DNA from: Candidatus Woesearchaeota archaeon | GTDB taxonomy: Archaea; Nanobdellota; Nanobdellia; Woesearchaeales; JAGWAF01 | Reading direction: 5' to 3' | Length of the DNA: 49,809 bases | NCBI GenBank assembly: GCA_018303205.1 | Contig: JAGVYP010000019.1 | Location: forward strand, 1 to 49,809 | The notes under the pieces: generated by a model | Database searches by the model: none | Told to the model about the DNA's origin: nothing | The model's input: the letters and a program-made list of their open reading frames with translations, nothing else | Position numbers and translations under genes: made by a program | In this document: positions 9,046 to 49,383 of the stretch, piece by piece | Layout of the letters: every line of letters starts with the position of its first letter | Position numbering within the stretch: position 1 is the first letter of the stretch

Positions 9046-9172
9046 GAAGCTGTACCATCCTCAGGTCGAGCTTCTTAGACAAAAAGAAGAGACAGTGACA
9101 AAGGGGACGCTCCAGTCGGGAAACGTCACTCATCAACAAAAAAGATAACAAGCGAGAAGATGGTACAGCTTC
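9046..9172 (+). repeat. Family B structured intergenic element, copy B1
   Basis: 14-bp perfect outer stem GAAGCTGTACCATC/GATGGTACAGCTTC. CTCAGGTCGA-GCTT ... AAGC-GAGAA, inner stem GTGAC/GTCAC enclosing AAAGGGGACGCTCCAGTCGGGA. Confidence 0.85.
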
Positions 9173-9210
9173 AAAAAGTAAAAAAGAAATAAAGATCTTT
9201 GGTGTAAAAC

Positions 9211-9474
9211 ATGCACTCTCATAAAACCCTACGTTTTTTTCAATCCTTTCAAGGTGTAGAAGAAGGAAGAAAAGGACAATGCACTCCAGAACAATGTGAA
9301 ACTCTCGATGGGAGAAAAGGAAGTGCGTGTTGCAAACTCGGTTATGTATGCCCTTGCTTAAAAAAGAATACGCAATGCGGTGTATATCAAATAAGGCCTC
9401 CTAATTGCAGAGTTTTTCCACGAACAAGAGAAGACTTAAGCTTAGTAAAAAATTGCGGATACTATTGGAAATAA
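9211..9474 (+). CDS. YkgJ-family Cys-cluster (Zn/Fe-S) protein
   Basis: C...C...CC...CP.L....C.VY..RP.NCR.FP...CGY pattern. Confidence 0.75.
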   Translation: MHSHKTLRFFQSFQGVEEGRKGQCTPEQCETLDGRKGSACCKLGYVCPCLKKNTQCGVYQIRPPNCRVFPRTREDLSLVKNCGYYWK

Positions 9475-9475
9475 A

Positions 9476-10576
9476 CTATTTTTGATCTTGCATAAACTCT
9501 TTTTTAAATTTTTCAAATCTTTTTTCTTTAATTGCACTTTTTGCTTGTTCCAAAAGAGCATTCATAAAGTGTAAGTTATGTAGAGTGTTTAAGCGATTGC
9601 TGTGGGGTTCTTTCATTCTGAAAAGATGATGCAGATATGCCCTCGTAAAATGTTTGCAAGTATAACAGGTGCAGTCTTCTTCCAAGGGAGCAAAATCATG
9701 TTCATATCTTTTATTTTTAATATCAAGCGTTCCTTTCATCGTGAATAAAGAACCGTGACGCGCGTTCATGGTTGGAAATCGGGAATCCCAGATGTCTATT
9801 CCTTTGATGATACTCTCCAAAATCTGTTCTGGAACACCAATACCCATCAAATACTTAGGCTTTTCTTTGGGCAATTCTTTCATAGCAATATCAATAGCAT
9901 GGTACATATCCTCTGGTTTTTCTCCTAAAGCAAGTCCTCCTAATGCAAGCCCATCAAAATCAATCTGAGAGATTTTTTGTGCAGCAAGCTTGCGGAGATC
10001 GTCATGTAATCCGCCTTGACTAATACCAAATAAAAGATGGCCATCATTTTTTTTGTCGTGAAATGTTTTGCAACGCTCTGCCCATGCTGTTGTTTTTTTA
10101 ATGCTTTCTAAACATCTCGAATGTCCAGCTCCTAAGCGTGGCATATCATCTAAACACATATGCACATCTGCATTAATCATTAATTGAATTTCCATGCTCC
10201 TTTCAGGTGTGCAAAACACTTCTCCGCCATGGATAGGGTCTTTAAATTTTACGCCGTCTTGATTCGTCATGAGAAGAAAACTATCACTATACATCTGAAA
10301 TCCCCCAGAATCTGTAAAAATATTTTTTTTAAATTTCATAAATTGATGAATTCCCCTACACTTTTCAAAGACCTGCAATCCTGGTGAGAGAGATAACACA
10401 AAGCTATTCGCGATGATGCTTTGCGTTCCTAACATTTCTAAGTCTTTTCCATCAAAGTATTTCCCTACAGCCTTAGTAGCACACGGCATGAAAAAAGGAG
10501 TTTCAAAACTGCCATGCTGTGTTGTTAAGAGACCTACTCTTGCTTTGCCATCTTCTGCAATGATTTCAAAAGTCAT
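9476..10576 (-). CDS. tgt: tRNA-guanine(34) transglycosylase, bacterial type
   Basis: ETPFFMP, TDSGGFQ, GISQGG, GGLALGE, KPKYLMGIG and the Zn site CTCYTC...HNL. 366 aa with no archaeosine-TGT PUA extension. Confidence 0.93.
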   Translation of the reverse strand: MTFEIIAEDGKARVGLLTTQHGSFETPFFMPCATKAVGKYFDGKDLEMLGTQSIIANSFVLSLSPGLQVFEKCRGIHQFMKFKKNIFTDSGGFQMYSDSFLLMTNQDGVKFKDPIHGGEVFCTPERSMEIQLMINADVHMCLDDMPRLGAGHSRCLESIKKTTAWAERCKTFHDKKNDGHLLFGISQGGLHDDLRKLAAQKISQIDFDGLALGGLALGEKPEDMYHAIDIAMKELPKEKPKYLMGIGVPEQILESIIKGIDIWDSRFPTMNARHGSLFTMKGTLDIKNKRYEHDFAPLEEDCTCYTCKHFTRAYLHHLFRMKEPHSNRLNTLHNLHFMNALLEQAKSAIKEKRFEKFKKEFMQDQK

Positions 10577-10701
10577 ATACTGGAGGAAAGAGCAGTATTT
10601 AAAAAACTATCAGTATATTGATCTTCTTTATGATGAAATTAGTTTTTTCTTATTTTTCATTTTTTTAAGTACTTTTTCTTTCTTCTAGACTTTTTTCATA
10701 T

Positions 10702-10849
10702 ATGTCAAAAACCACCGATCATAGATTGGTGGCATGTCGCGACATGCCATTATCCATAGTGGTTTTTGAGCATGCTCAAAAATTTTCCTCTGGTAATTGT
10801 CCATTGGCTTCGAGCCACTCTTCAGAGACTAGTGGAAAATTTTTGACAT
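10702..10849. repeat. Family C modular palindromic element, copy C1
   Basis: Terminal inverted repeat ATGTCAAAAA/TTTTTGACAT. Two modules joined at GAGCATGCTC. Internal palindromes GGCATGTCGCGACATGCC, CCACCGATC/GATTGGTGG and TGGCT/AGCCA. The first ~70 nt are nearly identical to the copy starting at 30358. Confidence 0.85.
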
Positions 10850-11028
10850 TTTTGAAACTTTTAACTTTCTCACACTTCTTTTGTATTTTTGTTTGTATTT
10901 TTATAAAAATAATAAACAGAAAAGAAAGGATATGCCAAAGATTAAAAAATAACAAAAGAAAGAGAACAAATGATAAAAAACAGCCCTGGAATCCAAATAT
11001 TTTTAAACAAGCTCTTCTCCCTGTTTCT

Positions 11029-12327
11029 ATGAAAAAATACCTTACTCTTCAGGAAGCCATAGAACAAGGCTCAGGAAAGGTAGCTTTGCAAGGCTGGGTG
11101 TATCGCGAACGAGGCTCATCTAAGATAAAATTTCTTGTACTCAGAGATCATACTACTATTCTTCAATGTGTTGTTGAAAAAGAAAAAATAGGAGAAAAAA
11201 AGTTTAGTCTGATTGACAAAATACAAATTGAAACCTCTGTACGCTTAGAAGGAACGATCAAAAAAGATGAACGAGCTCCCACAGGATATGAAGTCAATGT
11301 GGAAGACCTTGAAATTGTAGGAATAGCAAATGAGTTTCCTATCCAAAAAGATCAGAGCGTTGAATTTTTAGCAGACAACAGGCATTTATGGCTCAGATCG
11401 AGAAGGATGACAGCAATTCTCAAAATACGGAGCACGGTTTTTCAAGCCATAGATACGTATTTTAGAAATAATAAGTTTTATTTGTACCACAGCCCTATCT
11501 TTTCTCCGAATAATTGCGAAGGAGGAAGCACAGTATTCAAAGTAGACTATTTTGGTAACGAAATGTTTCTCACACAGTCCTGGCAATTATATGCAGAAGC
11601 AGGTATTTTTTCTTTAGGAAATATCTACACCATTGCACCTTCCTTTAGAGCTGAAAGAAGCAAAACATCACGACATTTGACAGAATACTGGCATGCAGAA
11701 ATGGAAATGGTCTGGAACACTTTTGAAGATGTCATGCACCATGCAGAAGGAGTTCTCAAATTTATCCTGAAAGAAGTTTTAGACAAACACCAAGAAGAAT
11801 TCAAAATACTTGAAAGAGACCCCAAAAAGTTAGAGCCTGCACTGAAAAAACCCTTCATAAAAATGACCTATACTGATGCTTTAAAGATTTTAAAAGAAAA
11901 ATGTAAAATGGACGTTGAATGGGGAAAAGATTTGCGTACCCTAGAAGAAGAGAAACTGACCAAGTTATATGATGTGCCCTTACTGGTAACACGATATCCT
12001 AAAAAAATTAAAGCATTTTACATGAAAGAAGACCCTGAAAATTCTGAAGTAGTACTCGGAATGGATTGCCTTGCACCAGAAGGCTATGGAGAAATTATCG
12101 GAGGCTCACAAAGAGAAGAAAACGCAGAAGAAATTGAAAAAAGACTGCGAGAACAAGGAGAAGATCCCTCAGTTTATGGTTGGTATTTGGATTTGAGAAA
12201 ATACGGCTCAGTTCCCCACGGAGGATTTGGATTAGGTGTTGAAAGAGTTATTACCTGGATTTGCGGACTAGACAACATCAAAGATGCAATTCCCTTTCCC
12301 AGAACCATGTTCAGATTTACTCCATGA
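11029..12327 (+). CDS. asnS: Asparagine--tRNA ligase (archaeal type)
   Basis: GWVYRER, RHLWLRS, FLTQSWQLYAE, FRAERSKTSRHLTEYWHAEME, EIIGGSQRE, YGSVPHGGFGLGVER. The real start is ATG 11029; the upstream ORF extension runs through repeat C1. Confidence 0.93.
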   Translation: MKKYLTLQEAIEQGSGKVALQGWVYRERGSSKIKFLVLRDHTTILQCVVEKEKIGEKKFSLIDKIQIETSVRLEGTIKKDERAPTGYEVNVEDLEIVGIANEFPIQKDQSVEFLADNRHLWLRSRRMTAILKIRSTVFQAIDTYFRNNKFYLYHSPIFSPNNCEGGSTVFKVDYFGNEMFLTQSWQLYAEAGIFSLGNIYTIAPSFRAERSKTSRHLTEYWHAEMEMVWNTFEDVMHHAEGVLKFILKEVLDKHQEEFKILERDPKKLEPALKKPFIKMTYTDALKILKEKCKMDVEWGKDLRTLEEEKLTKLYDVPLLVTRYPKKIKAFYMKEDPENSEVVLGMDCLAPEGYGEIIGGSQREENAEEIEKRLREQGEDPSVYGWYLDLRKYGSVPHGGFGLGVERVITWICGLDNIKDAIPFPRTMFRFTP

Positions 12328-12668
12328 GTATAGAACAATACATCAAAAACAATACGTTCTGAAGCATTACCGTTCGCAGGCCGAAGAAGTCCATTGTGAT
12401 CATTGCCTTGGAAAAGGTCACCGTCCTCAGGTCGAGCGTGTAAGCCAAAAGAATCAACGAAGTTCAAGGGGATACTCCCCACGGGAATGAACGATAGAGA
12501 AACAAAAAGGTAACTACGCGAGAAGACGGTGACCAAAAAAGAAAATAAATGAGCAGCAAATCTCTGTGATGACCTTCCAAAAAGAAGAGAAAAAAAGATA
12601 AAATAAACATAAAAAAATGAATAGTGTAAATCAAAAATGAGTATAGAACAATACATCAAAAACAATAC
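12324..12668 (+). mobile_element. Insertion scar: 32-bp direct repeat enclosing nested B and A elements
   Basis: ATGAGTATAGAACAATACATCAAAAACAATAC occurs at 12324-12355 and 12637-12668. Between them lie a degenerate B left arm (12360-12384), an A left arm (12398-12412), a full B copy and an A right arm (12551-12578). Confidence 0.7.
12416..12534 (+). repeat. Family B element, copy B2 (nested inside family A arms)
   Basis: Stem GGTCACCGTC/GACGGTGACC. CTCAGGTCGA-GCGT...ACGC-GAGAA, inner GTTCA/TGAAC enclosing AGGGGATACTCCCCACGGGA. Confidence 0.85.
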
Positions 12669-12879
12669 CCTTTCCATTCTTGTGAAACCTAACTCTTCCA
12701 AAACAGAAATTCTTGGCTGGGATGAAGAAAAGCAAGCTTTGAGAATTGCAATTCATGCTCCTCCTGAAGACAATAAAGCAAATAAAGAACTTCTAAAATT
12801 TCTGAAAAAAACATTGAAAAGAAAAGTTGAATTGATTAAAGGTAAAACTTCAAGAGAGAAAGTAGTTAGGATTTCTTAA
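12637..12879 (+). CDS. DUF167/UPF0235 (YggU-like) protein
   Basis: VKPNSSKTEI, APPEDNKANKEL, LIKGKTSREK. Confidence 0.88.
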   Translation: MSIEQYIKNNTLSILVKPNSSKTEILGWDEEKQALRIAIHAPPEDNKANKELLKFLKKTLKRKVELIKGKTSREKVVRIS

Positions 12880-13630
12880 ACGGTTTAGACTGTTTCCAGA
12901 ATGCATCAAAATAAGACTTAAACGAATCTGCTATTTCTTTATCAATGATTTCAATAACCATTTCTTTGCTTTGTAAGAAAATAGCAGTCACATCTTTATA
13001 ATTAAGAAACCATGATGGCGTTTCAATACCTGGTGGCATGTAACGTGCTTCAGAACCTTTGTAACTATTTCTATTTAACAAAGTAGAACGTGGAGTGCCA
13101 TGATTAAAAAGCATTTTGCATGTAATACCTGCTTTTGCTCTTCGAAGGTGATCTCTTTTCCAATAAAGGTCATATCTTTCTTCTTGATTTGTAGGGATTC
13201 CCCAGGAATAAAATTCTTCGCCTTTCTTTAATTTGAGATACGTGTGTTCTGCAACGGTTATTATTCCTTTGAATCCTTCATAGATTTGTGCTTCACTTGA
13301 TTTTTTTGCAGATTGTTTTTGCAATTGCAATTGAGGAATCAGTTCATTCATAGCTTTTCTTTGTTGTTCAAGTGTTTTTTCTTTTTGGTCTATATAGTCT
13401 TGAAATTTAATAGGATCTTCTGCTTGATAGTATTTTGTTTTCTGTTTGACGATGTAAGAAACAAGTCCTTTAGTGATGAGTCGTTCAACCACTTCATAGA
13501 TTTTTGATCTTGCTACTCCTGACTTTTCTGTTAAAGGTCCAGAAGTGGTTGAACCTAAATAAAGAAGGGCAAGATAAACTTTAGTTTCACTTTCAGTTAA
13601 TCCGATGTCTCGTAGTACGGAGTAATTCAT
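12866..13630 (-). CDS. TrmB-family transcriptional regulator
   Basis: IGLTESETKVYLALL...RSKIYEVVERLITKGLVS HTH, followed by YEGFKG and an effector domain ending in YFDAFW. Confidence 0.88.
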   Translation of the reverse strand: MNYSVLRDIGLTESETKVYLALLYLGSTTSGPLTEKSGVARSKIYEVVERLITKGLVSYIVKQKTKYYQAEDPIKFQDYIDQKEKTLEQQRKAMNELIPQLQLQKQSAKKSSEAQIYEGFKGIITVAEHTYLKLKKGEEFYSWGIPTNQEERYDLYWKRDHLRRAKAGITCKMLFNHGTPRSTLLNRNSYKGSEARYMPPGIETPSWFLNYKDVTAIFLQSKEMVIEIIDKEIADSFKSYFDAFWKQSKPFKKS

Positions 13631-13724
13631 AGCATTACAAGAAGGAGCTTCTATATAAAACTAAGTATTGCTTAACCCTATAGGGGGAGGCGATCTTTAT
13701 TTATTTCCTATACTATACTCTGTT

Positions 13725-14789
13725 ATGGCTATTACAGAAAATGCTCGAATTACTGGTGCCCATTATACAGAAGCTAAAAAATCAGCGTGTATATTGTTAG
13801 ATCAATTAGGTAAATCATTAATCTATCATAGAAAAGCGCATACTACAGATTTTGTTGTACCTGCAGCATTAGCAATTGCAGAAAGAGAAGGATTTTCTTT
13901 AGAAGATAAATTAATTGTTAGTATTGCGGCTGCATTTCATGATACTGGTTTTGTTAGACAATATAATGCAAATGAGTCTATTGGTGCTCAATTTGCTGAA
14001 GATTATATGAGATCTTCTATGCAAGAGTATACAGAAGAGCAAATCAGATTAGTAAAAGATGCAATCATAAATACAGATATGAAAGAAGTACCTAAAACAA
14101 AATATGAAAAAGTGTTAAGAGACGCTGATTTAGCGATTTTAGGACATCATGATTTTGTTCAATGGAATAATGATTTAAGGAGAGAATGTAAATTACATCC
14201 TGAATCGCCTATGCATCAAGCTTCTTTGGATAGATCAAAATGGGCTCAATCACAATTAGGATTTATTTCATCTCATACGTGGTTTACAGAGGGTGCGAAA
14301 ACATTGTACGAAGAGTCTAAACAACAAAATATTCTTGCTTTCAAAAAGGAGTATCCATTGACACAACAATACGCAGTATTTGTAAGAAGTAAAAATTGTG
14401 ATGATAGTTCGGACATTGTCCTTCTCGTTCTAAGATTATCTGAAAGAGATTTGTCTAGTGCAGATTTTTTTCCAAAGGATGACGCGCAAAGATCTGAAGG
14501 GGGATATCCGCAAAAGATATGGCGATTTGATAGTCTTGAAGACGCAAAACGTAAAGCTGAAGAAACAGCTGATGGTAATTTTGTTCTTGAAGCGGGGGTT
14601 GTACCGATAGATACCGGAGAGCATCGTTATGTCGCCATGAGTCAAGAAATTTGTATGGGAGATCCAGTTTATGCTGTAAAAGTTGTAAGAACTCTTAGAG
14701 AAATAAGAAATTATGATAGAAAGAATTGGAAAGAAACATTGGAAGAGACATGCAAAAGAGATGAGCATTGGAAGCATATAAGCATATAG
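13725..14789 (+). CDS. HD-domain phosphohydrolase with an uncharacterised C-terminal extension
   Basis: YH...HT, AAAFHDTGF, LRDADL, LRRE, H.WFT. About 140 additional residues follow YPL. Confidence 0.75.
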   Translation: MAITENARITGAHYTEAKKSACILLDQLGKSLIYHRKAHTTDFVVPAALAIAEREGFSLEDKLIVSIAAAFHDTGFVRQYNANESIGAQFAEDYMRSSMQEYTEEQIRLVKDAIINTDMKEVPKTKYEKVLRDADLAILGHHDFVQWNNDLRRECKLHPESPMHQASLDRSKWAQSQLGFISSHTWFTEGAKTLYEESKQQNILAFKKEYPLTQQYAVFVRSKNCDDSSDIVLLVLRLSERDLSSADFFPKDDAQRSEGGYPQKIWRFDSLEDAKRKAEETADGNFVLEAGVVPIDTGEHRYVAMSQEICMGDPVYAVKVVRTLREIRNYDRKNWKETLEETCKRDEHWKHISI

Positions 14790-14915
14790 AAACATCGGAT
14801 TTTTCGAATATTTTTCGGTAAAAAACTCAAAAGACGGAAAAAAGAACGACAAAAGCGAAATCTTTTCGGAAAAATAACCGCAAAGTATTTCTTAACTAAA
14901 AAACAAGATTATGAA

Positions 14916-15176
14916 ATGTCTTTCATAACATTAATTGTAATTGAAAAAGAAGATATAAAAATTATTCCTGAGCATTATAATACGATTATTAGGATTATGA
15001 ATCATGATTTTAAGAATGCGAAGCATTACCTAAAAGAAGCTGAAGAAATTCCGCTAGATGCAGGCTACCTTCTTGTTGATATGAATAAAAAAATTATCAT
15101 AAATGGGCAGTCAGCTTTTGCACGTCAGCATCTCCATCCCAAATACAGCACTGAATGGTTCTGGATCGAGGTGTAG
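14916..15176 (+). CDS. Hypothetical protein
   Basis: 86-aa ORF with typical composition, directly upstream of the toxin-antitoxin pair. Confidence 0.55.
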   Translation: MSFITLIVIEKEDIKIIPEHYNTIIRIMNHDFKNAKHYLKEAEEIPLDAGYLLVDMNKKIIINGQSAFARQHLHPKYSTEWFWIEV

Positions 15177-15184
15177 TATACAAT

Positions 15185-15397
15185 ATGAATATTATTTTTA
15201 CTTCCCATGTGAAAGAAAGGATGGAACTAAGAAAAATCTTGAAAGAAGAAGTAATAGATGCCATCCTCCATCCAGATATAATCATAAAGGAATACGGTGA
15301 ATATTATTTTCAAAAGAAACTGGAAAGAGGCACTATTGAATTGCCCTGTGAGAGAACGGAAACTTATATAAAGGTGATTACCGTATACTGGTTGTAA
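15185..15397 (+). CDS. DUF4258-family putative toxin (RelE/BrnT-like)
   Basis: FTSHVKERMELRKI..EEV..AI..PD ... KVITVY. Paired with a DUF2283 gene. Confidence 0.75.
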   Translation: MNIIFTSHVKERMELRKILKEEVIDAILHPDIIIKEYGEYYFQKKLERGTIELPCERTETYIKVITVYWL

Positions 15398-15398
15398 C

Positions 15399-15611
15399 AT
15401 GGAAATAAACTACGATAAAGATGCTGATGCTTTGTATATTGAATTTCGTAAAGGCAATTTTGCTAAAAACAAAAAAATTGATGATTTTACTATTATAGAT
15501 ATAGATAAAGAAGGAAATCTTTTGGGCATTGAACTCTTAAGAGTAAGTAAAAGAATACCAAAAGATTCCCTTTCTCACATCAATGTCAAAAATCTTGTGG
15601 TAGCACAATAA
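15399..15611 (+). CDS. DUF2283-family putative antitoxin
   Basis: MEINYDKDADALYIEF ... IDIDKEGNLLGIELL..SK. Confidence 0.85.
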   Translation: MEINYDKDADALYIEFRKGNFAKNKKIDDFTIIDIDKEGNLLGIELLRVSKRIPKDSLSHINVKNLVVAQ

Positions 15612-15632
15612 ACTGTTGATTAAGATTTTACA

Positions 15633-15862
15633 ATTAAAAACGAACTTAATTTGTACTATGATGAAGAAGAGATTTCTTAGAATTGCAGATAGGAGACTAT
15701 ACAGAAGGATACTTCAAGAATCTTGGAAACGGAATTTTTGAGAGAAGAGACAAGAAAACAGAAAAAATAACAGGCATCGCGATTCACAGCTTTAAAAAAA
15801 GAACTTTAGGATTAAAAGAAAGAAAAATTTCCCTGCCTTTTAAGGTCGAAATAACTTCTTAA
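15633..15862 (+). pseudogene. Frameshifted DUF2283-like gene
   Basis: Manual translation gives (I)KNELNLYYDEE, then a 1-nt loss at about 15669, then DFLELQIGDYTEGYFKNLGNGIFERRDKKTEKITGIAIHSFKKRT...KVEITS*. No ATG. Confidence 0.7.
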
Positions 15863-15874
15863 AGATGGTATAAA

Positions 15875-16237
15875 ATGAGAATACGATTAGTTGAAAGTTA
15901 TGAAAAAGATAACGAAGAAGTATGGGACTATATCATGGATGTAGGAGCTGGAAGAAGAGAAATTGATCCTGAAAGAGCAAAGAGAACTTTAGTGTTGACT
16001 CCCAAAACTTTTGCGCAAGTCTTTTCTCCTGAAAGAATGAGGATTATTCTAAAATTGAAAGAAAAAAAATACTTGAATATTTATCAATTGGCAAAAGAAT
16101 TAGGAAGAAAATATGAAGCAGTGCATCGTAATGTGAGTTACTTATCTCACCGAGGTATTATTAAGATTAAAACAAAAGACAAGAAAAAGATTCCTTATAT
16201 ACATGAACCCATTTCAATACCTCAGTTGACAAGTTAA
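15875..16237 (+). CDS. Winged-HTH DNA-binding protein (HVO_A0114-like orphan antitoxin/regulator)
   Basis: VFSPERMRII..L...NIYQLAKELGRKYEAVHRNV..L...GII.....K..PY. Confidence 0.75.
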   Translation: MRIRLVESYEKDNEEVWDYIMDVGAGRREIDPERAKRTLVLTPKTFAQVFSPERMRIILKLKEKKYLNIYQLAKELGRKYEAVHRNVSYLSHRGIIKIKTKDKKKIPYIHEPISIPQLTS

Positions 16238-16294
16238 GATTATAGGTACATGATGAAAAAGAGATTTCTTAGTAGCTCTAAATTAAAAAAAGAG

Positions 16295-16798
16295 TTAGTC
16301 ACTTAAATCGTACTGTTCTAAGTCATAGAATTCTAATTTGTGAACTTTTAAGACTAGGATCCCTTCCCAATCAGCGATAATATGGCTAAATTTTTGCCTA
16401 ATCTCTGTTGATATTTTTTCGAATTCAGGCGCGTTTTTGGCGATAAAGACACAGGTAATATCTGTATTTCCTACAGTTGAAAATAAATCAATAACTCTTG
16501 GATGATTTTTTAAATGATTGATAAATTGATTTTTTGCATCTTCAGTGATGTTTTGTAATTTAATTTTGATGTCAAGAGTGAGTGGAAAACCTATCGCTTT
16601 AGGATCGATAGCTGTCCAAAACTCAAATATTTTTTTCCTCTGCATTTCTTTAATACGTTTGTTGACAGAATCGATAGAAAGATGGACTTGTTTTGCAATA
16701 TGGGTAAGGCTTTCGCGAGCGTTTTTCTGCAGAATCATAAGGATTTGCCTATCTTTTTCATCTAAAATTCTCGATTTTAAAGCGCTTTCATAAGGCAT
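16295..16798 (-). CDS. Lrp/AsnC-family transcriptional regulator
   Basis: LDEKDRQILMILQKNARESLTHIAKQV.LS...V..RIK HTH, IDPKAIGF, and a RAM domain with VGNTD. Confidence 0.92.
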   Translation of the reverse strand: MPYESALKSRILDEKDRQILMILQKNARESLTHIAKQVHLSIDSVNKRIKEMQRKKIFEFWTAIDPKAIGFPLTLDIKIKLQNITEDAKNQFINHLKNHPRVIDLFSTVGNTDITCVFIAKNAPEFEKISTEIRQKFSHIIADWEGILVLKVHKLEFYDLEQYDLSD

Positions 16799-16829
16799 GT
16801 TAGTAGATAAAATAGGATTAATATTTAAA

Positions 16830-16852: not shown

Positions 16853-16893
16853 ATATGAATAATACTTAATAAATTATCTTATATAAGAGTTAT

Positions 16894-18497: not shown

Positions 18498-18502
18498 TAA
18501 AA

Positions 18503-21433: not shown

Positions 21434-21509
21434 AAAAAAAAGAAAAGAAAACTGGTTTAAAAGGCTTTTCTATTGAAAGACTCTGTCCCAAATCTCACTA
21501 TCGTTCGGG

Positions 21510-21586
21510 TTAGCAGCTTCTCGTGTAGCTCTTCTTTTTGTTGATGAGTGCCATTTCCCGTCTGGAGCATCCCCTTTGTCACTATC
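21510..21586 (-). repeat. Family B element, 5'-truncated copy B3 on the minus strand
   Basis: The reverse complement GATAGTGACAAAGGGGATGCTCCAGACGGGAAATGGCACTCATCAACAAAAAGAAGAGCTACACGAGAAG matches the B1 interior and 3' motif. It starts immediately after the stop of 21587..22372. Confidence 0.8.
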
Positions 21587-22372
21587 TTATTTTTTTCTCA
21601 TATAATCAACCAGTAAATATACACCTAAAGAAAAAAGAACTCCGATGAAAAACCATAAAGCAATATTATGCCACAAAGAAGGCTCTGTGCTTATTTGTTG
21701 GATAATCGTTTCTTTTGTAACAACTTGAGCAAGCTCTTGTCCTGTTGTATTTGCTATTTCATCAGAAACATCTTGGGCTAGAGAAGGCACTGCTTGTTCA
21801 AGAACAAGACTTGTTCCTTCCTCAGCTGATTTCTCTACTGCAACCTCTGAAGCCATACGAAGAGCATCATAGCTTGCTTCCTCAACAAAAGGTTGAGCAG
21901 CTTGCTGCACCATCTGCTGAGCTACAGGAGTACTTTCTGTAAAAACCTGTTCTTGCATGGTTTGAGCAACAGGAAAATATCGCGAAAGCCATTGGACAAG
22001 AGCAGTAATGCCTACTGCAGCAAGAAGAACAGGAAGGATACTCCTCAGTTTTTCCTTAAATCCATGTACCCCCTTAGGTGCAATGATAATATACTGATTA
22101 GCAAGACTGTAATGATTAACCTCTTTTCCTTTGACTGAATAATGGAACTCCTCAATTTTTACAAGGCCACCTTTAACTAAGAGTTGGAGATTGTAATGAA
22201 CAGTAGGCAAGGGAACAGCTAAATCTTGAGAAACTTGACTTTCAGTAATGCTTTCATGTTCTGAAAGATAGTCAAGAATTCTTCTACAGGTAGCATTACT
22301 AATCACTTGAGCGAGTTCTGCAGCTTTTTGATCTTGTAAGGAAACCAGTAAAAACTTATTTTTCTTTCCCAT
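21587..22372 (-). CDS. ArsR-type HTH protein with two transmembrane helices
   Basis: ISNATCRRILDYL...TES.VS..L.VPL.TVHYNL..L...GLV HTH. TM segments at about aa 112-130 and at the C-terminus flank a Q/E/A-rich linker. Confidence 0.8.
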   Translation of the reverse strand: MGKKNKFLLVSLQDQKAAELAQVISNATCRRILDYLSEHESITESQVSQDLAVPLPTVHYNLQLLVKGGLVKIEEFHYSVKGKEVNHYSLANQYIIIAPKGVHGFKEKLRSILPVLLAAVGITALVQWLSRYFPVAQTMQEQVFTESTPVAQQMVQQAAQPFVEEASYDALRMASEVAVEKSAEEGTSLVLEQAVPSLAQDVSDEIANTTGQELAQVVTKETIIQQISTEPSLWHNIALWFFIGVLFSLGVYLLVDYMRKK

Positions 22373-41198: not shown

Positions 41199-41846
41199 TT
41201 ATTTATTTTCTGTTAGAAAAGGAATAAGCTTCTTCTCTGCTTTATGCAAATGCTCTTGAAATGTTTCTCTCCTTACTTTAGCGATCTTCGCAAGATCTTC
41301 CAAATAAATCTTTCTTGGAAAGTTATAATATCCTTCTTTCACAGCTAATTCAACAGCTTCTTTTTGTTTGGGAGACAATTTTGGAGAAATATGTGGTAAA
41401 ATAATATCAGTAACTTTTGATTTTTTGATAGACTTCACTTTAATATCATAAACAGGAATATCAAACACTTGCATTAGCTTTTTCTTATTCCACGATGCTA
41501 TTTCCCAGTCTTCATACCCATCTATTCTTTGTATAACAGGTTTTATCTGAATAATTTGAGGATCAAAAGCAGGATCTATAGATTCACTTAATAATTCTTC
41601 TCTCAAAGTAAAAAGACATCCATCCTCATACTCGGCTTTTTTCACATTTTTTTGTTTTTTAAAATCTCTGACAAATTTCTTTTTGTCTTGCTCCCCGCCC
41701 TGCAAGATATGAAACTGTGTATAATAAAATTTGTTTTTTTCTGTCCAACATTTTAATATATAAACAAAATCAGTTACATGATACTTTTTACATAAAGGTC
41801 GTATATTGCATGTCTTATGCCAAACCTTAAACTTTGCAATCCACAT
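41199..41846 (-). CDS. HTH_10 (Bat-type) transcriptional regulator
   Basis: C-terminal LSPKQKEAVELAVKEGYYNFPRKIYLEDLAK.......FQEHL.KAEKKL. Confidence 0.88.
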   Translation of the reverse strand: MWIAKFKVWHKTCNIRPLCKKYHVTDFVYILKCWTEKNKFYYTQFHILQGGEQDKKKFVRDFKKQKNVKKAEYEDGCLFTLREELLSESIDPAFDPQIIQIKPVIQRIDGYEDWEIASWNKKKLMQVFDIPVYDIKVKSIKKSKVTDIILPHISPKLSPKQKEAVELAVKEGYYNFPRKIYLEDLAKIAKVRRETFQEHLHKAEKKLIPFLTENK

Positions 41847-41959
41847 ATTGACTCTAAAAGAAGAGTTACTATAAAAAGCTTCACTTTTTACTACATATGT
41901 AGGTTTAATTTAGTTTAATAAGCTCTATTTTTCATAATGATAGACAAGGAGTATATACA

Positions 41960-42184
41960 ATGGCACCTGAATATGAACATGAATATAGTAGAACAAGTGG
42001 AACAGGGTATTTAGTTACGAGAATAAGATTTTATCAACCTAAGAATGGTGGAGGAATGCTTAAGGTAGTAACTATTGAAGATAGAAGAACAGGTAGAGTT
42101 GAAGTGAGATATGATCAAAGTGGAGAACTTAATCGATGTTACAGAACTATATCAGGATTGGAAAGAGATCTTGATAATGTTTAA
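41960..42184 (+). CDS. Small hypothetical protein
   Basis: 74-aa ORF with an AAGGAG RBS, divergent from the HTH_10 regulator. Palindrome CTACATATGTAG at 41891-41902. Confidence 0.6.
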   Translation: MAPEYEHEYSRTSGTGYLVTRIRFYQPKNGGGMLKVVTIEDRRTGRVEVRYDQSGELNRCYRTISGLERDLDNV

Positions 42185-42196
42185 TTAAAAAAATTA

Positions 42197-43387
42197 TCAC
42201 ACCACGCTATAATAATCTTCCAAGACAATACCTCCTATTTCTGCAAGGTCTCTGACAAGATAGAGTTTTCCTTCACCTATAGCAGTGAGATCTTTTGCAA
42301 AATGTGCAGCATCTTTGTCAAGAGAAATACCAATCAAAGAGATGGTAATACCATGCACGCGCGCTTGAGCAACTGCTTCCAAGGATTTTTTACGCGGATC
42401 TTCACCTACAGTAGGCTGCGCATCAGTCAAAATCACAAGATGTTTTGTGCCCTGCTGATGAGAAAAGAGCAGGATGGCTTTTTCTATCATCAGAGCAAAA
42501 TTCGTTTCACGAGTTGCTCGTATCGTAGTTATCTTTTTCAGCAAAAGAGGAAAGTTGAGAGTAGGAGCAGCTTCTTCTGTTATTTCAGAACCAAAAACGA
42601 GTAAGCCAACTTTGTCTTTTTTATCAATGGCTTTGTATGCTAATCCTATTCCGGCTTTTTTGCACATCTCTATTTTTCTTCCCTTCATACTGCCTGAAGC
42701 GTCTAGCGCATAAATGATGCTTACTTGCCCTTTGCTTTTTCTTTCAAAGGTTTTCAAATCAGAAGATTGCACATGATGATGCCCTCTTCTGAGAGCAAGA
42801 TGCACAGACTTTTTTACTGCAAGATCTTTATAGCGATCACCTTGGTGAAATAAACGCACGTCATCTTTTTCACCATAATGCGTTTTTTTCTTATGGAGTT
42901 TTTCACCAAAATACCCATGAGGAATAAGTTCTTCCAATTCCTGCATGTACAAGACTAAAGATGCAAGGGAAACCCCTTTTTCAGTAACTACGCCAAGATC
43001 ATCAATCAAGCCATCATCTTTTAATTTTTCAATCGCTGATTTGATATTTCCCTGCAAAGAACGCTGAAATTCAGGAATGTTGATGTTTTTCTTCACATAG
43101 CTTGCATCGTATCCGGAAAGCAAGCTGATAAGACGTTCTCCCATGATCTGCTCTGCAAGCCGGTAATTTTGCACCAGGTGCTGAAATGCCAAATCAGGAG
43201 AAAAACTCTGCAAGTTATTGTTAAACGCTTCATTAATAATTTTTCCTTCATCAAGAGTTTTTTTATCATTTTCCAGAACAGACTTCATAAGCTTGTCTTC
43301 TTCAAATTGAGAATTAAGATTTCCTTGAAGTTGTTCTATTTCTTCAACTTCCTCTGGAATTTGAGTAAGGTTCTCAGGGAACATCAT
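42197..43387 (-). CDS. von Willebrand factor A domain protein
   Basis: MIDAS motif LDASGSM, DKVGLLVF, TN and ILTDAQPT. Coupled to the upstream AAA+ gene. Confidence 0.88.
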   Translation of the reverse strand: MMFPENLTQIPEEVEEIEQLQGNLNSQFEEDKLMKSVLENDKKTLDEGKIINEAFNNNLQSFSPDLAFQHLVQNYRLAEQIMGERLISLLSGYDASYVKKNINIPEFQRSLQGNIKSAIEKLKDDGLIDDLGVVTEKGVSLASLVLYMQELEELIPHGYFGEKLHKKKTHYGEKDDVRLFHQGDRYKDLAVKKSVHLALRRGHHHVQSSDLKTFERKSKGQVSIIYALDASGSMKGRKIEMCKKAGIGLAYKAIDKKDKVGLLVFGSEITEEAAPTLNFPLLLKKITTIRATRETNFALMIEKAILLFSHQQGTKHLVILTDAQPTVGEDPRKKSLEAVAQARVHGITISLIGISLDKDAAHFAKDLTAIGEGKLYLVRDLAEIGGIVLEDYYSVV

Positions 43388-44348
43388 CCTCTTCTTCACC
43401 CTGCTCTTCAGCAAAGAGTTTGAGCTGATTTTGCACAAATTGTTCTCTGCTTTGAAGATATTTTACAGAAGGCTTTAATTCAAGACGATGAGGAACTACT
43501 GTTAAGACAGCATCTTGCAAATCTTGAAAAGTAACTTGTCTTCTCTTTGCAAGAAACGCATTTGCCTGGGCACGCTCATACAATCCCAAAGATGCTCTTA
43601 CGCTAGGCTTTTGTTCAACATCTTTATGCTCTCTTAACAAACGAATAAAAACAACAGCTGCGGTAACGAGTTTATCATGCATGTCAACGGCTAACTTTTT
43701 TCCTTTCAGGAGAACAATCTTTTTTTCAAGCTCGGCAGATTCAGGATACGACATAGGAATCACATCAAACCTATCAAGAAAAACACTACTCAGCTTTTCT
43801 GTGCTACTATCTTCTGGATTCATCGTACCAATAAAGATAAAGTTTGTAGGAAAATCAACCGTAAAAGAACCTAAGGTTGCTCTTCCTTCTTCTAGGACTT
43901 GAAGTAATGCGTTTTGCAACTTTTCAGGACAACGATTCACTTCATCAAAAAAAAGAATGCCCTTATTTGCCTTAAATATTTTTCCAGGAGTAAAAGCTTC
44001 TACAGATAAAGCGCCGTACTTAAGCGCTTTTTCAGGATCAATGTCTCCCAATAAGTCTTCTACGGTTAGATCAGGGCTTCCTTGAATACGAATAAAGCGT
44101 TCTTCTCCTTTGATGACTTTTTTTGTTTTTTTTCCATGAATTTCTTCTTCAACTTCAAGATCAGGCAAGCTCTTCGCAATATTTCTTGCAAGCGTTGTCT
44201 TTCCGATGCCTGGTGGACCAATAAGAATAATGTGCCTTTGCATGAGCAAAGCAGATTTGATATGCCTTTTCGTGACTTCTTGTCCTAAAATAGAAGGAAA
44301 AGGATCTGGTGTGTTCAGGAAAATCTTTTCAAAGTTCGTAGTAATCAT
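43374..44348 (-). CDS. AAA+ ATPase, MoxR/chelatase-like
   Basis: GPPGIGKTT, RIQGSPDLT.EDL.G, FFDEVNR, QNALLQVLEEG, GTMNP, FLDRF, PSVR. Confidence 0.9.
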   Translation of the reverse strand: MITTNFEKIFLNTPDPFPSILGQEVTKRHIKSALLMQRHIILIGPPGIGKTTLARNIAKSLPDLEVEEEIHGKKTKKVIKGEERFIRIQGSPDLTVEDLLGDIDPEKALKYGALSVEAFTPGKIFKANKGILFFDEVNRCPEKLQNALLQVLEEGRATLGSFTVDFPTNFIFIGTMNPEDSSTEKLSSVFLDRFDVIPMSYPESAELEKKIVLLKGKKLAVDMHDKLVTAAVVFIRLLREHKDVEQKPSVRASLGLYERAQANAFLAKRRQVTFQDLQDAVLTVVPHRLELKPSVKYLQSREQFVQNQLKLFAEEQGEEEDDVP

Positions 44349-44465
44349 GGCCCCCTATAGAAGAGGAGTTTATTTATAAAAGTATGGGTAGCCTATTTAG
44401 GATTATTTATTTTATGTTCTTTTTTGAGTATGAGAATGATGAAGAAAAAAAATAATAGAGATAGT

Positions 44466-44598
44466 GTATTTGTTTAGCATCCTTAAGTCAAGCGTGTAGG
44501 CGAAAAGAATATGCGAAGTTCAGGGGGACGTCCCTTACGGGGCTTGAACGAAACATAAGCAAAAAGAATGACTACGCGAGAAGATGCTAAACAAATAC
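44466..44598 (+). repeat. Family B element, copy B4
   Basis: 16-bp perfect stem GTATTTGTTTAGCATC/GATGCTAAACAAATAC. CTTAAGTCAA-GCGT...ACGC-GAGAA, inner GTTCA/TGAAC enclosing GGGGGACGTCCCTTACGGGG. Confidence 0.85.
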
Positions 44599-44658
44599 GA
44601 GATGAGAATTAAAGAAAAAAATTAAGGACATTTTTGTAAAAGAGAAAAAGAGGACTCC

Positions 44659-46032
44659 CTACTGTTTGGGAGGGGAGCGCCTCTTCTTTTGGGTTTCTGG
44701 AGAGGATTGTTTTTTAGGAAGTACTCTTGCCATGATGAGAATGGCAACAATTGCAACTAAGATAAGAAGGATTAAGAAAGGAATGTAAAATCCGCTTGTT
44801 CTGAAGCTTTGTGAGCTTGAAGTTGTTGCGTAAATACGATTATCTCCTAATACAAGAGTAGGTTGTTGTACAACAGCAGGTTGTGCAACGTTTCTCTGAG
44901 GAGGTTGCTGTGATGTAGTTTGAGGAACAGATGGTTCTTCTCCGCAAGAGATTTGAATACTGCCTGTCTGAGTATCAGTAATGCGACCATCATCTGCAAG
45001 AACGCTGACTTCAAAATAGGAAAGACCTTCTTCCCCTTGAGAAGGCAAGGAAAGAGTAAAACGCACATTTTCTGTGTCATCTTCTTCTACTTCTATTCCT
45101 GAAACTTCTTCATTAATACGGAGCTTGTCGTTCAGTACTTGAACGGTTACATCATCTTGATTATCTTCACCAATATTTTCTATACCCACCCGAAGTGTCA
45201 CTTGCTGACCACAGGATGCCTGCTGAGGATGATCCAAACTTCGGATAATAACAAAATCATCTTCACGTTCTATTTCAAAAGACGCATTGATTCTTGAACC
45301 ATGCCTTGCTTGATTTTCATCAGTACCGCAAACAAAAACTGAGACAGGATACGTGTCATCATCTTCATCAAAATCAATATCAAAAGAGATTTCTTCAATA
45401 ACATCTCTGTCTGCTCTGAGATCATCCACATCAACATCTTCATTGATATCTAACTCATCTGATTCTATAAATAAAGTGATATCTTCAATGTCAAAGCCGT
45501 CATCATCAAAGTCATTTTCTATTTCTGCGATAAGAGTAATATCAGAATCTAATTCAAGATCTATGGTGTCTCCTTCATCAAAGGACTCTGAGCCCCCATT
45601 AAATTCAATGTCCACATCTTGAAAGACAAGATGATTTGCTCTCTGCATGAAAAGATTGGTTTGAGCAGATGAAGTATTAGTTGTTATGGATATAGTTCCT
45701 AGAGAAAATGCACTGGGAACACATTCAGGAGTAACTGCGTGAAAAGAGAGAGGAATAGTACCTGTAACAGTAATAAGAGCACTTTGACCTACCGTAAGAT
45801 TTTCAGGGATACCTGAAAATTGAATTGCATAAACACCACTTGCTGTAGTAGAAAGGGTAAAATTGCTTAAAGTTTCATTTCCTGTATTGGTAATGCGAAA
45901 TTGAGCTTGTACTACTCCTGCTTCTTGCCCTTCATTTCCCAGAGTTACATTTACATCGCTGGTAAGATTTGCGAGAATAGGTGCTGAAAGAAGGATGAGC
46001 AAAATCAGGGAAATAATAGTTAGTTTTTTCAT
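44659..46032 (-). CDS. Secreted, C-terminally anchored acidic surface (S-layer/Ig-like) protein
   Basis: Signal peptide, many N-x-T/S sequons, beta-rich D/E-rich domains (ENIGEDNQDDV), Q/P linker, C-terminal TM helix and basic tail. Confidence 0.75.
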   Translation of the reverse strand: MKKLTIISLILLILLSAPILANLTSDVNVTLGNEGQEAGVVQAQFRITNTGNETLSNFTLSTTASGVYAIQFSGIPENLTVGQSALITVTGTIPLSFHAVTPECVPSAFSLGTISITTNTSSAQTNLFMQRANHLVFQDVDIEFNGGSESFDEGDTIDLELDSDITLIAEIENDFDDDGFDIEDITLFIESDELDINEDVDVDDLRADRDVIEEISFDIDFDEDDDTYPVSVFVCGTDENQARHGSRINASFEIEREDDFVIIRSLDHPQQASCGQQVTLRVGIENIGEDNQDDVTVQVLNDKLRINEEVSGIEVEEDDTENVRFTLSLPSQGEEGLSYFEVSVLADDGRITDTQTGSIQISCGEEPSVPQTTSQQPPQRNVAQPAVVQQPTLVLGDNRIYATTSSSQSFRTSGFYIPFLILLILVAIVAILIMARVLPKKQSSPETQKKRRSPPKQ

Positions 46033-46263
46033 ACGAGTTGCCTCTGTTCGTACATAACCCCTTCCCCCACATACTAAAAATAGTCAGTCTATAAATAGAT
46101 TAGCTAGGCAAAAAGAATAGTGCAAACTTTTAGAGGTATTATTTTAGTTTTTTATTAAAAATAAGACTTTTTAGAACTTTTTTATATGAAATAAGATATT
46201 TTAGTGCTTATTAAATAAAAATAAGTGTTATTTATACTTTTAAAAATAAGATAAAAAGAGTGA

Positions 46264-47067
46264 TTAGAAAAGCTGTACTTCTATAATAGCAGCTATCGTA
46301 ACAAGAACCAAGCCTAAAACAAGAAATATAAGGCCATCAGTAATAATATGATGAAACTTCTCTGAAAACAAGTCTTCCCTTAAAACTGCCTTGGAAACAA
46401 CACCACCCACAATAGCAGCTGAAAAATAGCTTAATGCCTCTGTAACCATATGCGGCAAGACAGGAATGATCGTTGCTCCAAAATAATACAAAGCATTACC
46501 TGAAGCAGCAAAAGCAGATTGCTGAGCAACATACCCAAAAATAGTACCCCAAACAGAAGCGTTCCACACAATAAAAAGAATAGAACCAGCACCATACACA
46601 AAAGACAAGACAAGACAAACAAAAAGCACTTTGATATTATTGAGAAGAATACTCCATAAAATATCACTCTGAAAAGCCTGCCCTGCAAAACCACCCACAG
46701 CTAATTGAGTAGAAAAGAGATGAAACACAGAAGCTTCAGGCATCAACAACGCTAACAAAGCATATGTCATAAAAATACCCATAAAAAGAAAAAAGTAAAT
46801 ACCAAAAATATCCTTATGATCTAAAAAAAGCATTTTCAACGATAATTTTTTTTCCCTAATCTCAACGTTTTCTTCATCAAGAAGAAGACGATTCAAAGAA
46901 GGAATTAACAAGACAGAAGTAAAAGCGACAGTCATCATACTCGGATTTTTCCCAAAAATAAGACGCGCACTGATAATACCAAGAATAGAATAACACACAC
47001 CAAGAAGAAAAGCATACCGTGGCTTTCTCTCAATCCAATCTGTCCTAAATAATTGTTCAAATACCAT
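46264..47067 (-). CDS. SpoIIM (DUF95) family membrane protein
   Basis: ILLNNIKV, WNASVWG, LPH.V.E..SYF.AA..GG, AA.IE. Confidence 0.82.
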   Translation of the reverse strand: MVFEQLFRTDWIERKPRYAFLLGVCYSILGIISARLIFGKNPSMMTVAFTSVLLIPSLNRLLLDEENVEIREKKLSLKMLFLDHKDIFGIYFFLFMGIFMTYALLALLMPEASVFHLFSTQLAVGGFAGQAFQSDILWSILLNNIKVLFVCLVLSFVYGAGSILFIVWNASVWGTIFGYVAQQSAFAASGNALYYFGATIIPVLPHMVTEALSYFSAAIVGGVVSKAVLREDLFSEKFHHIITDGLIFLVLGLVLVTIAAIIEVQLF

Positions 47068-47429
47068 TATCGTTTTGTTTTTTTACTTTTTTGATCAAGA
47101 ACATGGGATACTACCTTTTCTGCGCGTTTAACTACTCTTTTTGCTGTGCGCTTTACAACAGATTTTCCCAGATGAGCGACTGAACGAACAACAGGCATTG
47201 CACGTTTTTTTACACCCTTAACTTCTTCACGAAGGAACGTATGCACCTGTTTTTTCTCTTGCTTTATTTCCTCAAGTACCATACGCTTTAACTGCTTTGC
47301 CTCTGCAGAAGTAAGAACCCCTGACAAGCTCAGAGCTTTGATTTCCTTCATCACTTCTTGTTCTGTAACATGAGCAAGTTGTTTTCCTCTAGACAAGAGG
47401 GAAATGAGATAATTGCGCAAACGCTCCAT
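47067..47429 (-). CDS. Basic phasin-like hypothetical protein
   Basis: Amphipathic helices (G.LT..EAK) and a K/R-rich tail. Lies downstream of the UbiB/AarF gene, a known gene pairing. Confidence 0.5.
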   Translation of the reverse strand: MERLRNYLISLLSRGKQLAHVTEQEVMKEIKALSLSGVLTSAEAKQLKRMVLEEIKQEKKQVHTFLREEVKGVKKRAMPVVRSVAHLGKSVVKRTAKRVVKRAEKVVSHVLDQKSKKTKR

Positions 47430-47460
47430 ATCCCTTTTCCAGAAGATAAGATATAAAAAT

Positions 47461-49146
47461 CTATCGCAACTTACTCCATCTACCTTCTTTAAAAATAGAA
47501 AGGATCAGAAACAAACTAATGATGCTCGCTCCGCTGAAACAAAGAAGTGCAAAAAGAGGCATGCCCCATAGATAAGGTTCTATGTCTGTTTGCATCAACA
47601 ATGCTCCTCCCACAATAAGACTTGCAATGATCATAGAAAAAGCAAGCCTGTTACTACTTCTATCCATTTCTTGAGTAAGATGGGTAACTTCTTCTTTTGC
47701 AACAGCAACATTCAACTTTCCCTTTTGAATCGTATCAAGTACACTCAACATCTCTCGAGGAACAGCTTTCAAAGTATCTTTCAATTGAAGTGCTTCCTTG
47801 AGCAAATGCTGTGGTTGCACACTCTTCTTGATTTTTTGTTTTAAAAATTGCGTAAGATAAGGCTTTGCAATGCTCACAAAATCAAAATCAGGATCAAGCT
47901 GGGCACAGGTTGCTTCTACGGTTACTAAAGCTTTACCTAACAAAATCATGTCAACAGGCAAGCTTACATGACGAGCAAGACATGCATCAAAAAGATGATG
48001 CAACATGGAAGTAACACGCACTTCAGAAAGCGTAGTTCCATACCAACGCATGAGAATGTCATGAGCATCACGCTTTAATGCTTCAAGATCAGTATCTTCA
48101 TGCACTTCTCCCATACGCACCAAAGCATTCACAACACCTTGCACATCCTTTTCAAGAAGAGCTAAAAAAAGATCAATGCCTTTTGAGCGCAATTCCGCAT
48201 CTAAACTTCCTACAATGCCAAAGTCAAGAAGAGCAATTTTCCCCTTAGGCAAAATAAGAATGTTTCCCGGATGCAAGTCTGCATGAAACACGTCAGATGC
48301 AAAAACTTGCTGCAATGCAGTTTCCACAAGCTGCTGCGCAATCTGCTTTCTCGGAAAAACCGTTTTTGAAGCAAGTAAATCTGACAGCTTTTTTCCTTCC
48401 ACGTGTTCCATCACTAAAATAGAAGTCGTTGATAAGGAACTATACACTCTGGGAATTTTGATAAGAGGAGCATGCTGAAAAGCAAGACCAAAGAGTTCCA
48501 GATTTCTTCGTTCAAAACGATAATCTAACTCTTTTTTTGTATAACGCTCAAACTCCTGCAGGATAATAAGGGGAGAAAAGTTTTCATAATGATAATACTT
48601 ATCTAATTTTCCAAAAAGATAATAGAGAATATCAATATCCTCTGCAAAGATCTCCTGAATATGGGGGCGTTGCACTTTTACTACGACTTGAGTTCCCTCA
48701 TGTAAGGTTGCACGATGCACTTGACCTACCGAAGCGCTGCCGAGAGGCTTTTCTTCAAAAGAAGAAAAAACTTCTTTGAGTGGTTTTCCTAATTCTTTTT
48801 CAACAGATTGTTTTGCTTCTGAAAAAGGAAAAGAAGGAACCTGATCTTGGAGTTTACTAAACTCTTTACAATACGCAAGAGGAACCAAGTCAGGGCGTAT
48901 GCTCAACAATTGTCCAAGCTTAATGTACGCCCCCCCTAATTTCTCCATAGACCTACGCAAGCGCACTTCAAGAGGAATGTAATCCTTCTGAGTAAACTGG
49001 TAGAGCTGAATATTTTTATGAAGAGGAAGATGCCAACGCAGTTTCATTTTATCAACAAAGTATCCAAGACCTTCATTCACAAGAACAAGAACTACTTCGC
49101 GTATCCTTTCTGCATCACGAAAAGTATTGCGAAGATGTGATTTCAT
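47461..49146 (-). CDS. AarF/ABC1/UbiB family atypical kinase
   Basis: LGGAYIKLGQLLSIRPDL, LQD.VP, GSASVGQVHRA, VVKVQRP, ELDY..E, FHADLHPGN, LLDFGIVG and two C-terminal TMs. Starts at MKSH. Confidence 0.93.
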   Translation of the reverse strand: MKSHLRNTFRDAERIREVVLVLVNEGLGYFVDKMKLRWHLPLHKNIQLYQFTQKDYIPLEVRLRRSMEKLGGAYIKLGQLLSIRPDLVPLAYCKEFSKLQDQVPSFPFSEAKQSVEKELGKPLKEVFSSFEEKPLGSASVGQVHRATLHEGTQVVVKVQRPHIQEIFAEDIDILYYLFGKLDKYYHYENFSPLIILQEFERYTKKELDYRFERRNLELFGLAFQHAPLIKIPRVYSSLSTTSILVMEHVEGKKLSDLLASKTVFPRKQIAQQLVETALQQVFASDVFHADLHPGNILILPKGKIALLDFGIVGSLDAELRSKGIDLFLALLEKDVQGVVNALVRMGEVHEDTDLEALKRDAHDILMRWYGTTLSEVRVTSMLHHLFDACLARHVSLPVDMILLGKALVTVEATCAQLDPDFDFVSIAKPYLTQFLKQKIKKSVQPQHLLKEALQLKDTLKAVPREMLSVLDTIQKGKLNVAVAKEEVTHLTQEMDRSSNRLAFSMIIASLIVGGALLMQTDIEPYLWGMPLFALLCFSGASIISLFLILSIFKEGRWSKLR

Positions 49147-49255
49147 AGATTCCTCTTTTTCTCTCTTCTCACGAATGTTCTTTATAAATGTTGTGTTCAA
49201 AAAAAATGAAAGAAAAAAGGAGGACAAAAGAGGAGAAAAGTAGTGTTTACTATCA

Positions 49256-49383
49256 TGAAGCGTTACCGTCCTCAGGTCGAGCTTCTGAGACAAGATGAAG
49301 AAACACTGACAAGAGGGTTGTCTCATCCGGAGAATGTCAGTTATAGACGAAAATATTGCAAGCGAGAAGACGGTACCGCTTCA
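49256..49383 (+). repeat. Family B element, copy B5
   Basis: 15-bp stem with 1 mismatch, TGAAGCGTTACCGTC/GACGGTACCGCTTCA. CTCAGGTCGA-GCTT...AAGC-GAGAA, inner CTGACA/TGTCAG enclosing AGAGGGTTG-TCTC/GAGA. Confidence 0.85.

Follow-up and report, generated by a model that had tools for sequence, protein, structure and literature searches.

Family B, a dispersed non-coding element of 130-190 bp with long forms of about 276 bp, is very probably a family of MITEs (miniature inverted-repeat transposable elements), that is, of non-autonomous DNA transposons, whose core recurs across an archaeal order. Several copies lie in a contig of 49,809 nucleotides from Candidatus Woesearchaeota archaeon (JAGVYP010000019.1, assembly GCA_018303205.1), the whole of which is referred to here as the window. 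A preliminary description of this DNA had proposed an undescribed structured noncoding RNA or mobile element, together with family A the best candidate for a new system. The mobile half of that proposal is supported by inverted repeats, 9-bp duplications, a patchy multi-copy spread and matching insertion sequences; the claim of novelty falls, since MITEs as such are already known. What had looked like a new RNA system becomes an annotated transposon family, the unusual feature of which is the reuse of one folded core among different sets of transposon ends.

The copies sort into four subfamilies according to their outermost core helix, P1, which had been described as different in each copy. 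Among 35 near-full copies in the draft genome to which the window belongs (G000; its contigs are designated C plus a number), 11 belong to subfamily i, four to subfamily ii and 12 to subfamily iii, and eight are iv-like. Several copies reach past P1 into further terminal repeats: subfamily i carries an extra outer stem of about 15 bp outside P1, in subfamily ii the element stops where P1 does, in subfamily iii additional repeats lie farther out in some genomes, and both terminal modules of subfamily iv are common to a larger element, family A (window 2756-3042, + strand), which is about 290 nt long and has a long terminal stem. Within these ends, of which there are at least four kinds, lies one conserved core of about 105 nt, comprising an asymmetric loop and helices P2-P4.

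Direct repeats of 9 bp, perfect in many copies and different in sequence in each, lie directly outside the outer stem of subfamily i. Among 36 copies of this subfamily, drawn from 12 genomes and one locus of a metagenome-assembled genome (MAG), a focused scan found 19 perfect repeats, nine at 8/9 and three at 7/9, so that 31 of the 36 copies match at 7/9 or better; in the G000 genome, all 11 do so at 8/9 or better. A blind scan of 105 copies for a 9-mer direct repeat with at most one mismatch outside the inverted termini returned 28 copies, against a mean of 2.8 in a control in which upstream and downstream flanks were taken from different copies. Because these repeats are target-site duplications, the two strands of the outer stem are terminal inverted repeats; the stem ends exactly at the duplications, as does P1 in subfamily ii, and the elements are thereby shown to have been inserted by a 9-bp staggered cut. 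Duplications of subfamily ii are few (9 bp at L167 and C68, 8-9 bp at L158), and the duplication beside a long form on C2 is perfect over 9 bp. When longer elements bounded by inverted ends and a perfect 9-bp duplication were sought, the scan returned this C2 long form and three chance pairs, two of which were inspected and enclose ordinary genes.

A candidate source of these ends was found in insertion sequences of the same organisms. A DDE_Tnp_1 search identified two of them in the G000 genome, ISb and ISc (Table 1). The commonest subfamily i terminus was found at the very ends of six contigs and belongs to a third, ISa, the interior of which is unassembled in G000 and which is complete in a relative. 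Pairs of these contigs share three perfect 9-bp duplications, and the genome therefore holds at least three ISa copies. Subfamily i and ISa termini have 14 identical bases (17/20), left matching left and right matching right, and another family B variant has its first 14 bases in common with the ISb ends; the match between subfamily i and insertion-sequence ends covers the terminal 14-17 bases. ISc has a nine-base duplication at 8/9 and is located exactly at the end of a family B copy. The transposases of ISa, ISb and ISc are 27-32% identical to one another; their matches to Pfam DDE_Tnp_1 exceed the cut-off, and the best NCBIfam match is the IS5-family model NF033579 (E 4e-38 and 6e-34). The core itself was not found in any of eight transposase-bearing loci searched (best E 0.38), which makes the MITE a pair of insertion-sequence ends around unrelated cargo. 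The mobilising enzyme anticipated in the preliminary description may be represented, for subfamily i alone, by putative IS5-family DDE transposases with matching ends. Family B accordingly shows the features by which MITEs are defined (short, multi-copy, non-coding elements with inverted termini, a duplication of fixed length and an autonomous element with the same ends), all of them in subfamily i and some of them in the other subfamilies.

Several further observations concern these insertion sequences. The contig pairs C64/C59, C29/C19 and C18/C23 each end about 98 nt inside ISa and share a 9-bp duplication, for which reason the members of each pair are probably neighbours in the genome. Two ISc-derived non-coding elements of 166 bp (C27:9425-9590 and C69:15410-15575), with the same ends and 9-bp duplications, constitute a separate MITE family. 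In two places, these elements are inserted within the duplication left by a family B copy. Other candidate partners were set aside: an IS1595-family transposase was found in 0 of 61 genomes and IS1 in 0 of 5, and IS256 occurred in G006 only.

The insertion sites themselves resemble one another. In 21 of 31 subfamily i copies, an all-A/T 8-mer resembling an archaeal TATA box is separated by 5-6 nt from the 5' duplication that follows it, and in 15 of 31 such an 8-mer starts a few bases past the 3' duplication. In C53, a gene read divergently has its start codon 23 nt from the box; in C19, the box lies 2 nt past the 3' duplication, and 25 nt downstream of it is a tRNA-Cys gene. The same kind of AT-rich site is occupied by ISc and by its derivative of 166 bp. 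A 9-bp duplication and a palindromic AT-rich target motif are listed for IS903, of the IS5 family (PMC2577343, Table 1). Family B thus has the 9-bp duplication and AT-rich flanks of an IS903-like element, with a spacing unlike that of IS903: its AT-rich flank stands 5-6 nt off the duplication, whereas the IS903 motif, as given in that table, abuts it directly.

The distribution of family B fits that of a mobile element. A profile built from the four full window copies gave 53 matches in the 1.42-Mb, 36% G+C draft genome, and a covariance model built from 24 copies of that genome gave 43, which supplies the genome-wide copy number that the preliminary description had wished to see. Among 60 relatives, the element is present in 19, at 1-30 copies per positive relative: it occurs in 7 of the 10 that belong to the family of G000 and in 12 of the 50 from other families of the order. 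Of 150 genomes sampled from the phylum, 24 contain it, every one of them a member of that order. When species genomes were scanned with a pattern, the scan returned about 105 single matches, chiefly in G+C-rich bacteria and resembling chance, together with repeated matches in MAGs named Woesearchaeota, Nanoarchaeia or 'archaeon', which the covariance model confirmed. A search of annotated phage and plasmid collections with one copy as query gave no match.

Copies in the G000 genome are intergenic; many follow directly after stop codons, many stand at contig ends, and some are nested in, or truncated by, other copies. The proteins flanking 12 copies show no mutual similarity, and in no relative does a copy lie downstream of the gene for aspartyl-tRNA synthetase (AspRS) or lysyl-tRNA synthetase (LysRS), the neighbours of two copies in the window; one relative has a copy upstream of AspRS. 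Most subfamily i copies in G000 stand between divergent genes. With respect to the genes beside them, copies show a weak bias in orientation, with 12 sense and 4 antisense copies in co-directional contexts in G000, and 5 sense and 4 antisense copies of subfamilies ii-iv in such contexts in the relatives. Placement right after stop codons, together with the strong covariation described below, is what might be expected of cis-regulatory elements or small RNA genes of an ordinary kind that do not move, the flanking repeats being coincidental. This explanation is nevertheless highly improbable and is largely refuted by the duplications, which are perfect outside the inverted termini of 19 of the 36 subfamily i copies and few in controls. 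Moreover, the ends are identical to insertion-sequence ends, copies interrupt one another, and their positions differ from genus to genus and are not conserved between genomes, which range from 0 to 43 copies when G000 and the negative relatives are included.

The fold of the core has the architecture first described. In order, it consists of P1; a 6-nt bulge facing a single A; two pairs (UC/GA); tandem G-A pairs; P2; two A-rich linkers of about 20 nt; P3; a G-tract; and a short P4 hairpin. The conserved asymmetric loop, CTCAGGTCGA opposite GAGAA, was confirmed, as was the co-variation of P2, P3 and P4, in 79 copies from outside the G000 genome (relatives and named archaeal MAG contigs). In this sample, 88.6% of cells are paired, a figure that falls to 35-42% when the partners are slid, and changes on both sides are seen in all 28 pairs; the alignment was fitted to the covariance model, and these figures therefore lean toward structure, although the margin remains large. 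With the same reservation, covariation backs a fold in the manner expected of a free-standing structured noncoding RNA. The two-pair helix UC/GA varies to GU/AC or GC/GC, and in two lineages the tandem G-A pairs are swapped for Watson-Crick A-U pairs. Fold z-scores range from -2.0 to -5.4 on the + strand and from -2.9 to -7.1 on the - strand. The statement that G-U wobbles favour the + strand holds weakly (83 G-U versus 56 A-C cells overall; 29 versus 8 in P3), both strands folding about equally well, and the tandem G-A pairs and the G-U excess weakly suggest the + strand as the folded one. An alternative pairing of the G-tract with P4, which had hinted at a switch, is backed by a single co-varying pair (GC 58, AU 14, other 1).

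In long forms, the P4 loop holds an extra domain, about 110 nt long and co-varying, the modules of which are also found in family A; internal hairpins of family A recur in this insertion. A different, hairpin-bearing insert of about 55 nt lies between P4 and the 3' strand of P3 at G000:C33:6780-7050 and C66:36790-37020, in tandem in C33, and may be another very small mobile repeat.

Binding of a transposase to double-stranded DNA explains matching ends and leaves the covariation of P2-P4 unexplained, from which we infer selection on a single-stranded fold. Such selection might act on RNA. Family B could be a MITE with a functional RNA core, possibly a G-tract switch, that acts on neighbouring transcripts or in trans and has been repeatedly recruited into different ends, a model that we consider possible though somewhat unlikely. 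It would account for the presence of the same core within at least four kinds of termini and its absence from the insertion sequences, for two-sided changes in all inner pairs across an order-wide sample, for conserved unpaired bases that are asymmetric and G-A pairs that become Watson-Crick pairs in two lineages, and for the preference for G-U over A-C in P3 and the alternative helix with its one co-varying pair. Against it, the core has no Rfam relative, no promoter or terminator of its own was identified, the orientation bias is weak and both strands fold equally. A broader version, in which the core of about 105 nt would be a functional structured RNA carried as cargo in several unrelated MITE frames across the order, we regard as unlikely; such a cargo may be two-state, through the G-tract and P4, and may be kept for action on transcripts at promoter-proximal and 3'-end sites or for its own mobilisation. 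If this were true, the core would amount to more than inert filler of a transposon, and DPANN archaea would possess in it a mobile regulatory RNA module.

Alternatively, the fold may be needed in DNA, with extrusion of a hairpin or cruciform joining the ends for the transposase, so that only rod-like copies keep multiplying. The whole element is indeed rod-like, its strands are similar in z-score, and the subfamily-specific compensations point to selection on proliferating lineages; elements of this size are also about as long as the persistence length of DNA or shorter. On the other hand, the two A-rich linkers are non-complementary and the tandem G-A pairs and G-U excess are strand-specific, and we know of nothing of the kind for IS5-family transposases. 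This explanation is distinctly unlikely.

Known RNA families offer no relative. The Rfam search proposed at the outset was run with Rfam 15: nothing in the window exceeded gathering scores, a permissive search of positions 8900-12700 (E up to 10) gave no match on family B elements, and 20 copies from the G000 genome gave just two chance-level matches (E 0.72 and 6.3). Likenesses to a hammerhead core, a k-turn, helix 8 of the signal recognition particle RNA and an integron attC site were dropped, as none was accompanied by an Rfam match; in addition, the copies do not lie in cassette arrays.

Several results weigh against the interpretation of family B as a MITE family with a selected fold. Clear duplications and a partner are confined to subfamily i; the ends of subfamilies iii and iv are mostly ill-defined, and no partner insertion sequence was found for subfamilies ii-iv. 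The NF033579 scores of 131.6 and 117.8 lie below the curated cut-off of 140. Among 61 genomes, transposase and element each occur in 20 and both occur in 7, with 6.6 expected by chance, and the copy-rich genomes G045, G006 and G004 show no such transposase. Draft assemblies often lose insertion sequences, as they have lost ISa, which makes missing co-occurrence weak evidence. No joint of an empty, unfilled site was found in the contigs of four DNA runs, contigs that break at repeats. Finally, the covariation of P2-P4 stands outside what transposase binding explains, while an RNA role for it meets the equal folding of both strands and the weak orientation bias noted above.

The interpretation as a MITE family nonetheless suggests a coherent course of events. 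The putative IS5-family DDE transposases would move subfamily i in trans, and related enzymes may move subfamilies ii-iv. That the outer stem co-varies, as P1 does in subfamily ii, would then reflect two transposon ends that match each other, while the P2-P4 covariation, the tandem G-A pairs and the conserved unpaired bases would reflect extra selection for a fold of one strand. By analogy with enterobacterial ERIC and neisserial Correia elements, the + strand may fold as read-through RNA, which we put at somewhat less than an even chance; such a fold might make insertions tolerable or alter neighbouring transcripts, as reported for those elements.

The closest analogues are probably IS5-derived MITEs of the IS903 type, which resemble family B in their short non-coding form, their use of the ends of co-resident IS5-family elements, their 9-bp duplication and their AT-rich flanks. 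Unlike them, family B shares the terminal 14-17 bases alone with its insertion sequences, has an unrelated conserved hairpin as its interior and resides in a DPANN archaeon. For hairpin behaviour, the nearest analogues would be ERIC and Correia elements. ERIC elements (also IRU) are like family B in size class, intergenic siting and hairpin behaviour; their hosts are bacterial, and they have a single kind of ends, whereas the family B core has several. Their duplication and ends also differ from those of family B. Wilson and Sharp, in 2006, reportedly observed compensatory changes in ERIC stems. Correia elements are likewise high in copy number and have functional effects, yet they are bacterial and without sequence or structural similarity to family B; promoters and a nuclease site have been described for them, whereas family B is known here from sequence alone.

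In the part of the literature consulted, ERIC/IRU elements are described as MITEs of about 127 bp, intergenic and often located in 3' untranslated regions, the transcript hairpins of which change mRNA stability, and Correia elements (CREE) of Neisseria as high-copy MITEs near promoters that carry promoters, an IHF site and hairpins cleaved by RNase III (PMC10969869). The same source gives tens of copies per genome for Sulfolobus SM1-SM4 and other archaeal MITEs (PMC10969869), and a MITE census records a Woesearchaea genome with 105 MITEs per Mb, the supplements of which may list family B (PMC11602168). The passages on archaeal MITEs in these sources make no mention of a conserved core of several helices that co-varies across an order.

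For this little-studied order of archaea, the analysis supplies a covariance model, the ends of the elements, the length of their duplication and candidate partner insertion sequences. Such elements break assemblies and occupy intergenic space in small genomes, and ISa allows three pairs of contigs to be joined. Of interest to those who study mobile DNA or RNA are a co-varying core that is independent of the transposase and reused among ends, as well as insertion 5-6 bp from TATA-like boxes, which might affect archaeal promoters.

Within the window, all four full copies lie where they had been placed in the preliminary description, each scoring 103-132 bits with the covariance model, and the left-arm relic is likewise present (Table 1). 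The truncated minus-strand copy exists, but its extent had been understated: it extends as far as about 21479, with a terminal repeat at its 3' end.

Table 1. Family B elements of the window, and the insertion sequences considered as their partners.
Feature	Position	Strand	Score or length	Remarks
Subfamily iii copy (P1 of the GAAGC...GCTTC kind)	9046..9172	+	132 bits	Model match 9043-9176; 16 nt past the stop of the bacterial-type AspRS gene, co-oriented
Relic, 5' arm and loop of a subfamily iii copy	12360..12389	+		Resembles the 5' part of the C34 copy; terminated by the next element
Whole subfamily iv element	12398..12578	+	103 bits	Core 12416-12534, as first described; 5' and 3' terminal modules common to the family A element; downstream of the LysRS gene, co-oriented
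5'-truncated subfamily i copy	21479..21586	-	53 bits	Retains P3/P4, 3' P2/P1 and, of the outer terminal repeats, the 3' one; directly adjoins the stop codon of the HTH gene (21587-22372)
Subfamily ii copy	44466..44598	+	116.5 bits	P1 doubles as terminal inverted repeat (GTATTTG...CAAATAC); flanked by MoxR-like and CARDB genes, to both of which it is antisense
Subfamily iii copy	49256..49383	+	119.4 bits	Between a divergent ABC1-kinase gene and a small membrane-protein gene
ISb	G000:C1:5202-6277		1076 bp	323-aa transposase; 8-bp flanking direct repeat, shifted one base
ISc	G000:C66:14048-15065 (L199 1076-2093)		1018 bp	304-aa transposase; perfect 17/17 terminal repeat
ISa, complete	Relative G015		897 bp	278-aa transposase

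The genes of the window include NucS, TrmB and CARDB proteins next to the two synthetases, both of bacterial type: an AspRS with a GAD domain (7270-9027) and a class II LysRS (10702-12327). The presence of these types in an archaeal genome is consistent with acquisition of the genes from bacteria. Summed over four metagenome runs, contig depth where the LysRS gene begins (10468-11131) is 10-30 times as high as in the bins next to it, and many loose contig ends fall at 10701-10737; the high depth suggests a stretch common to many other organisms, or a repeat.

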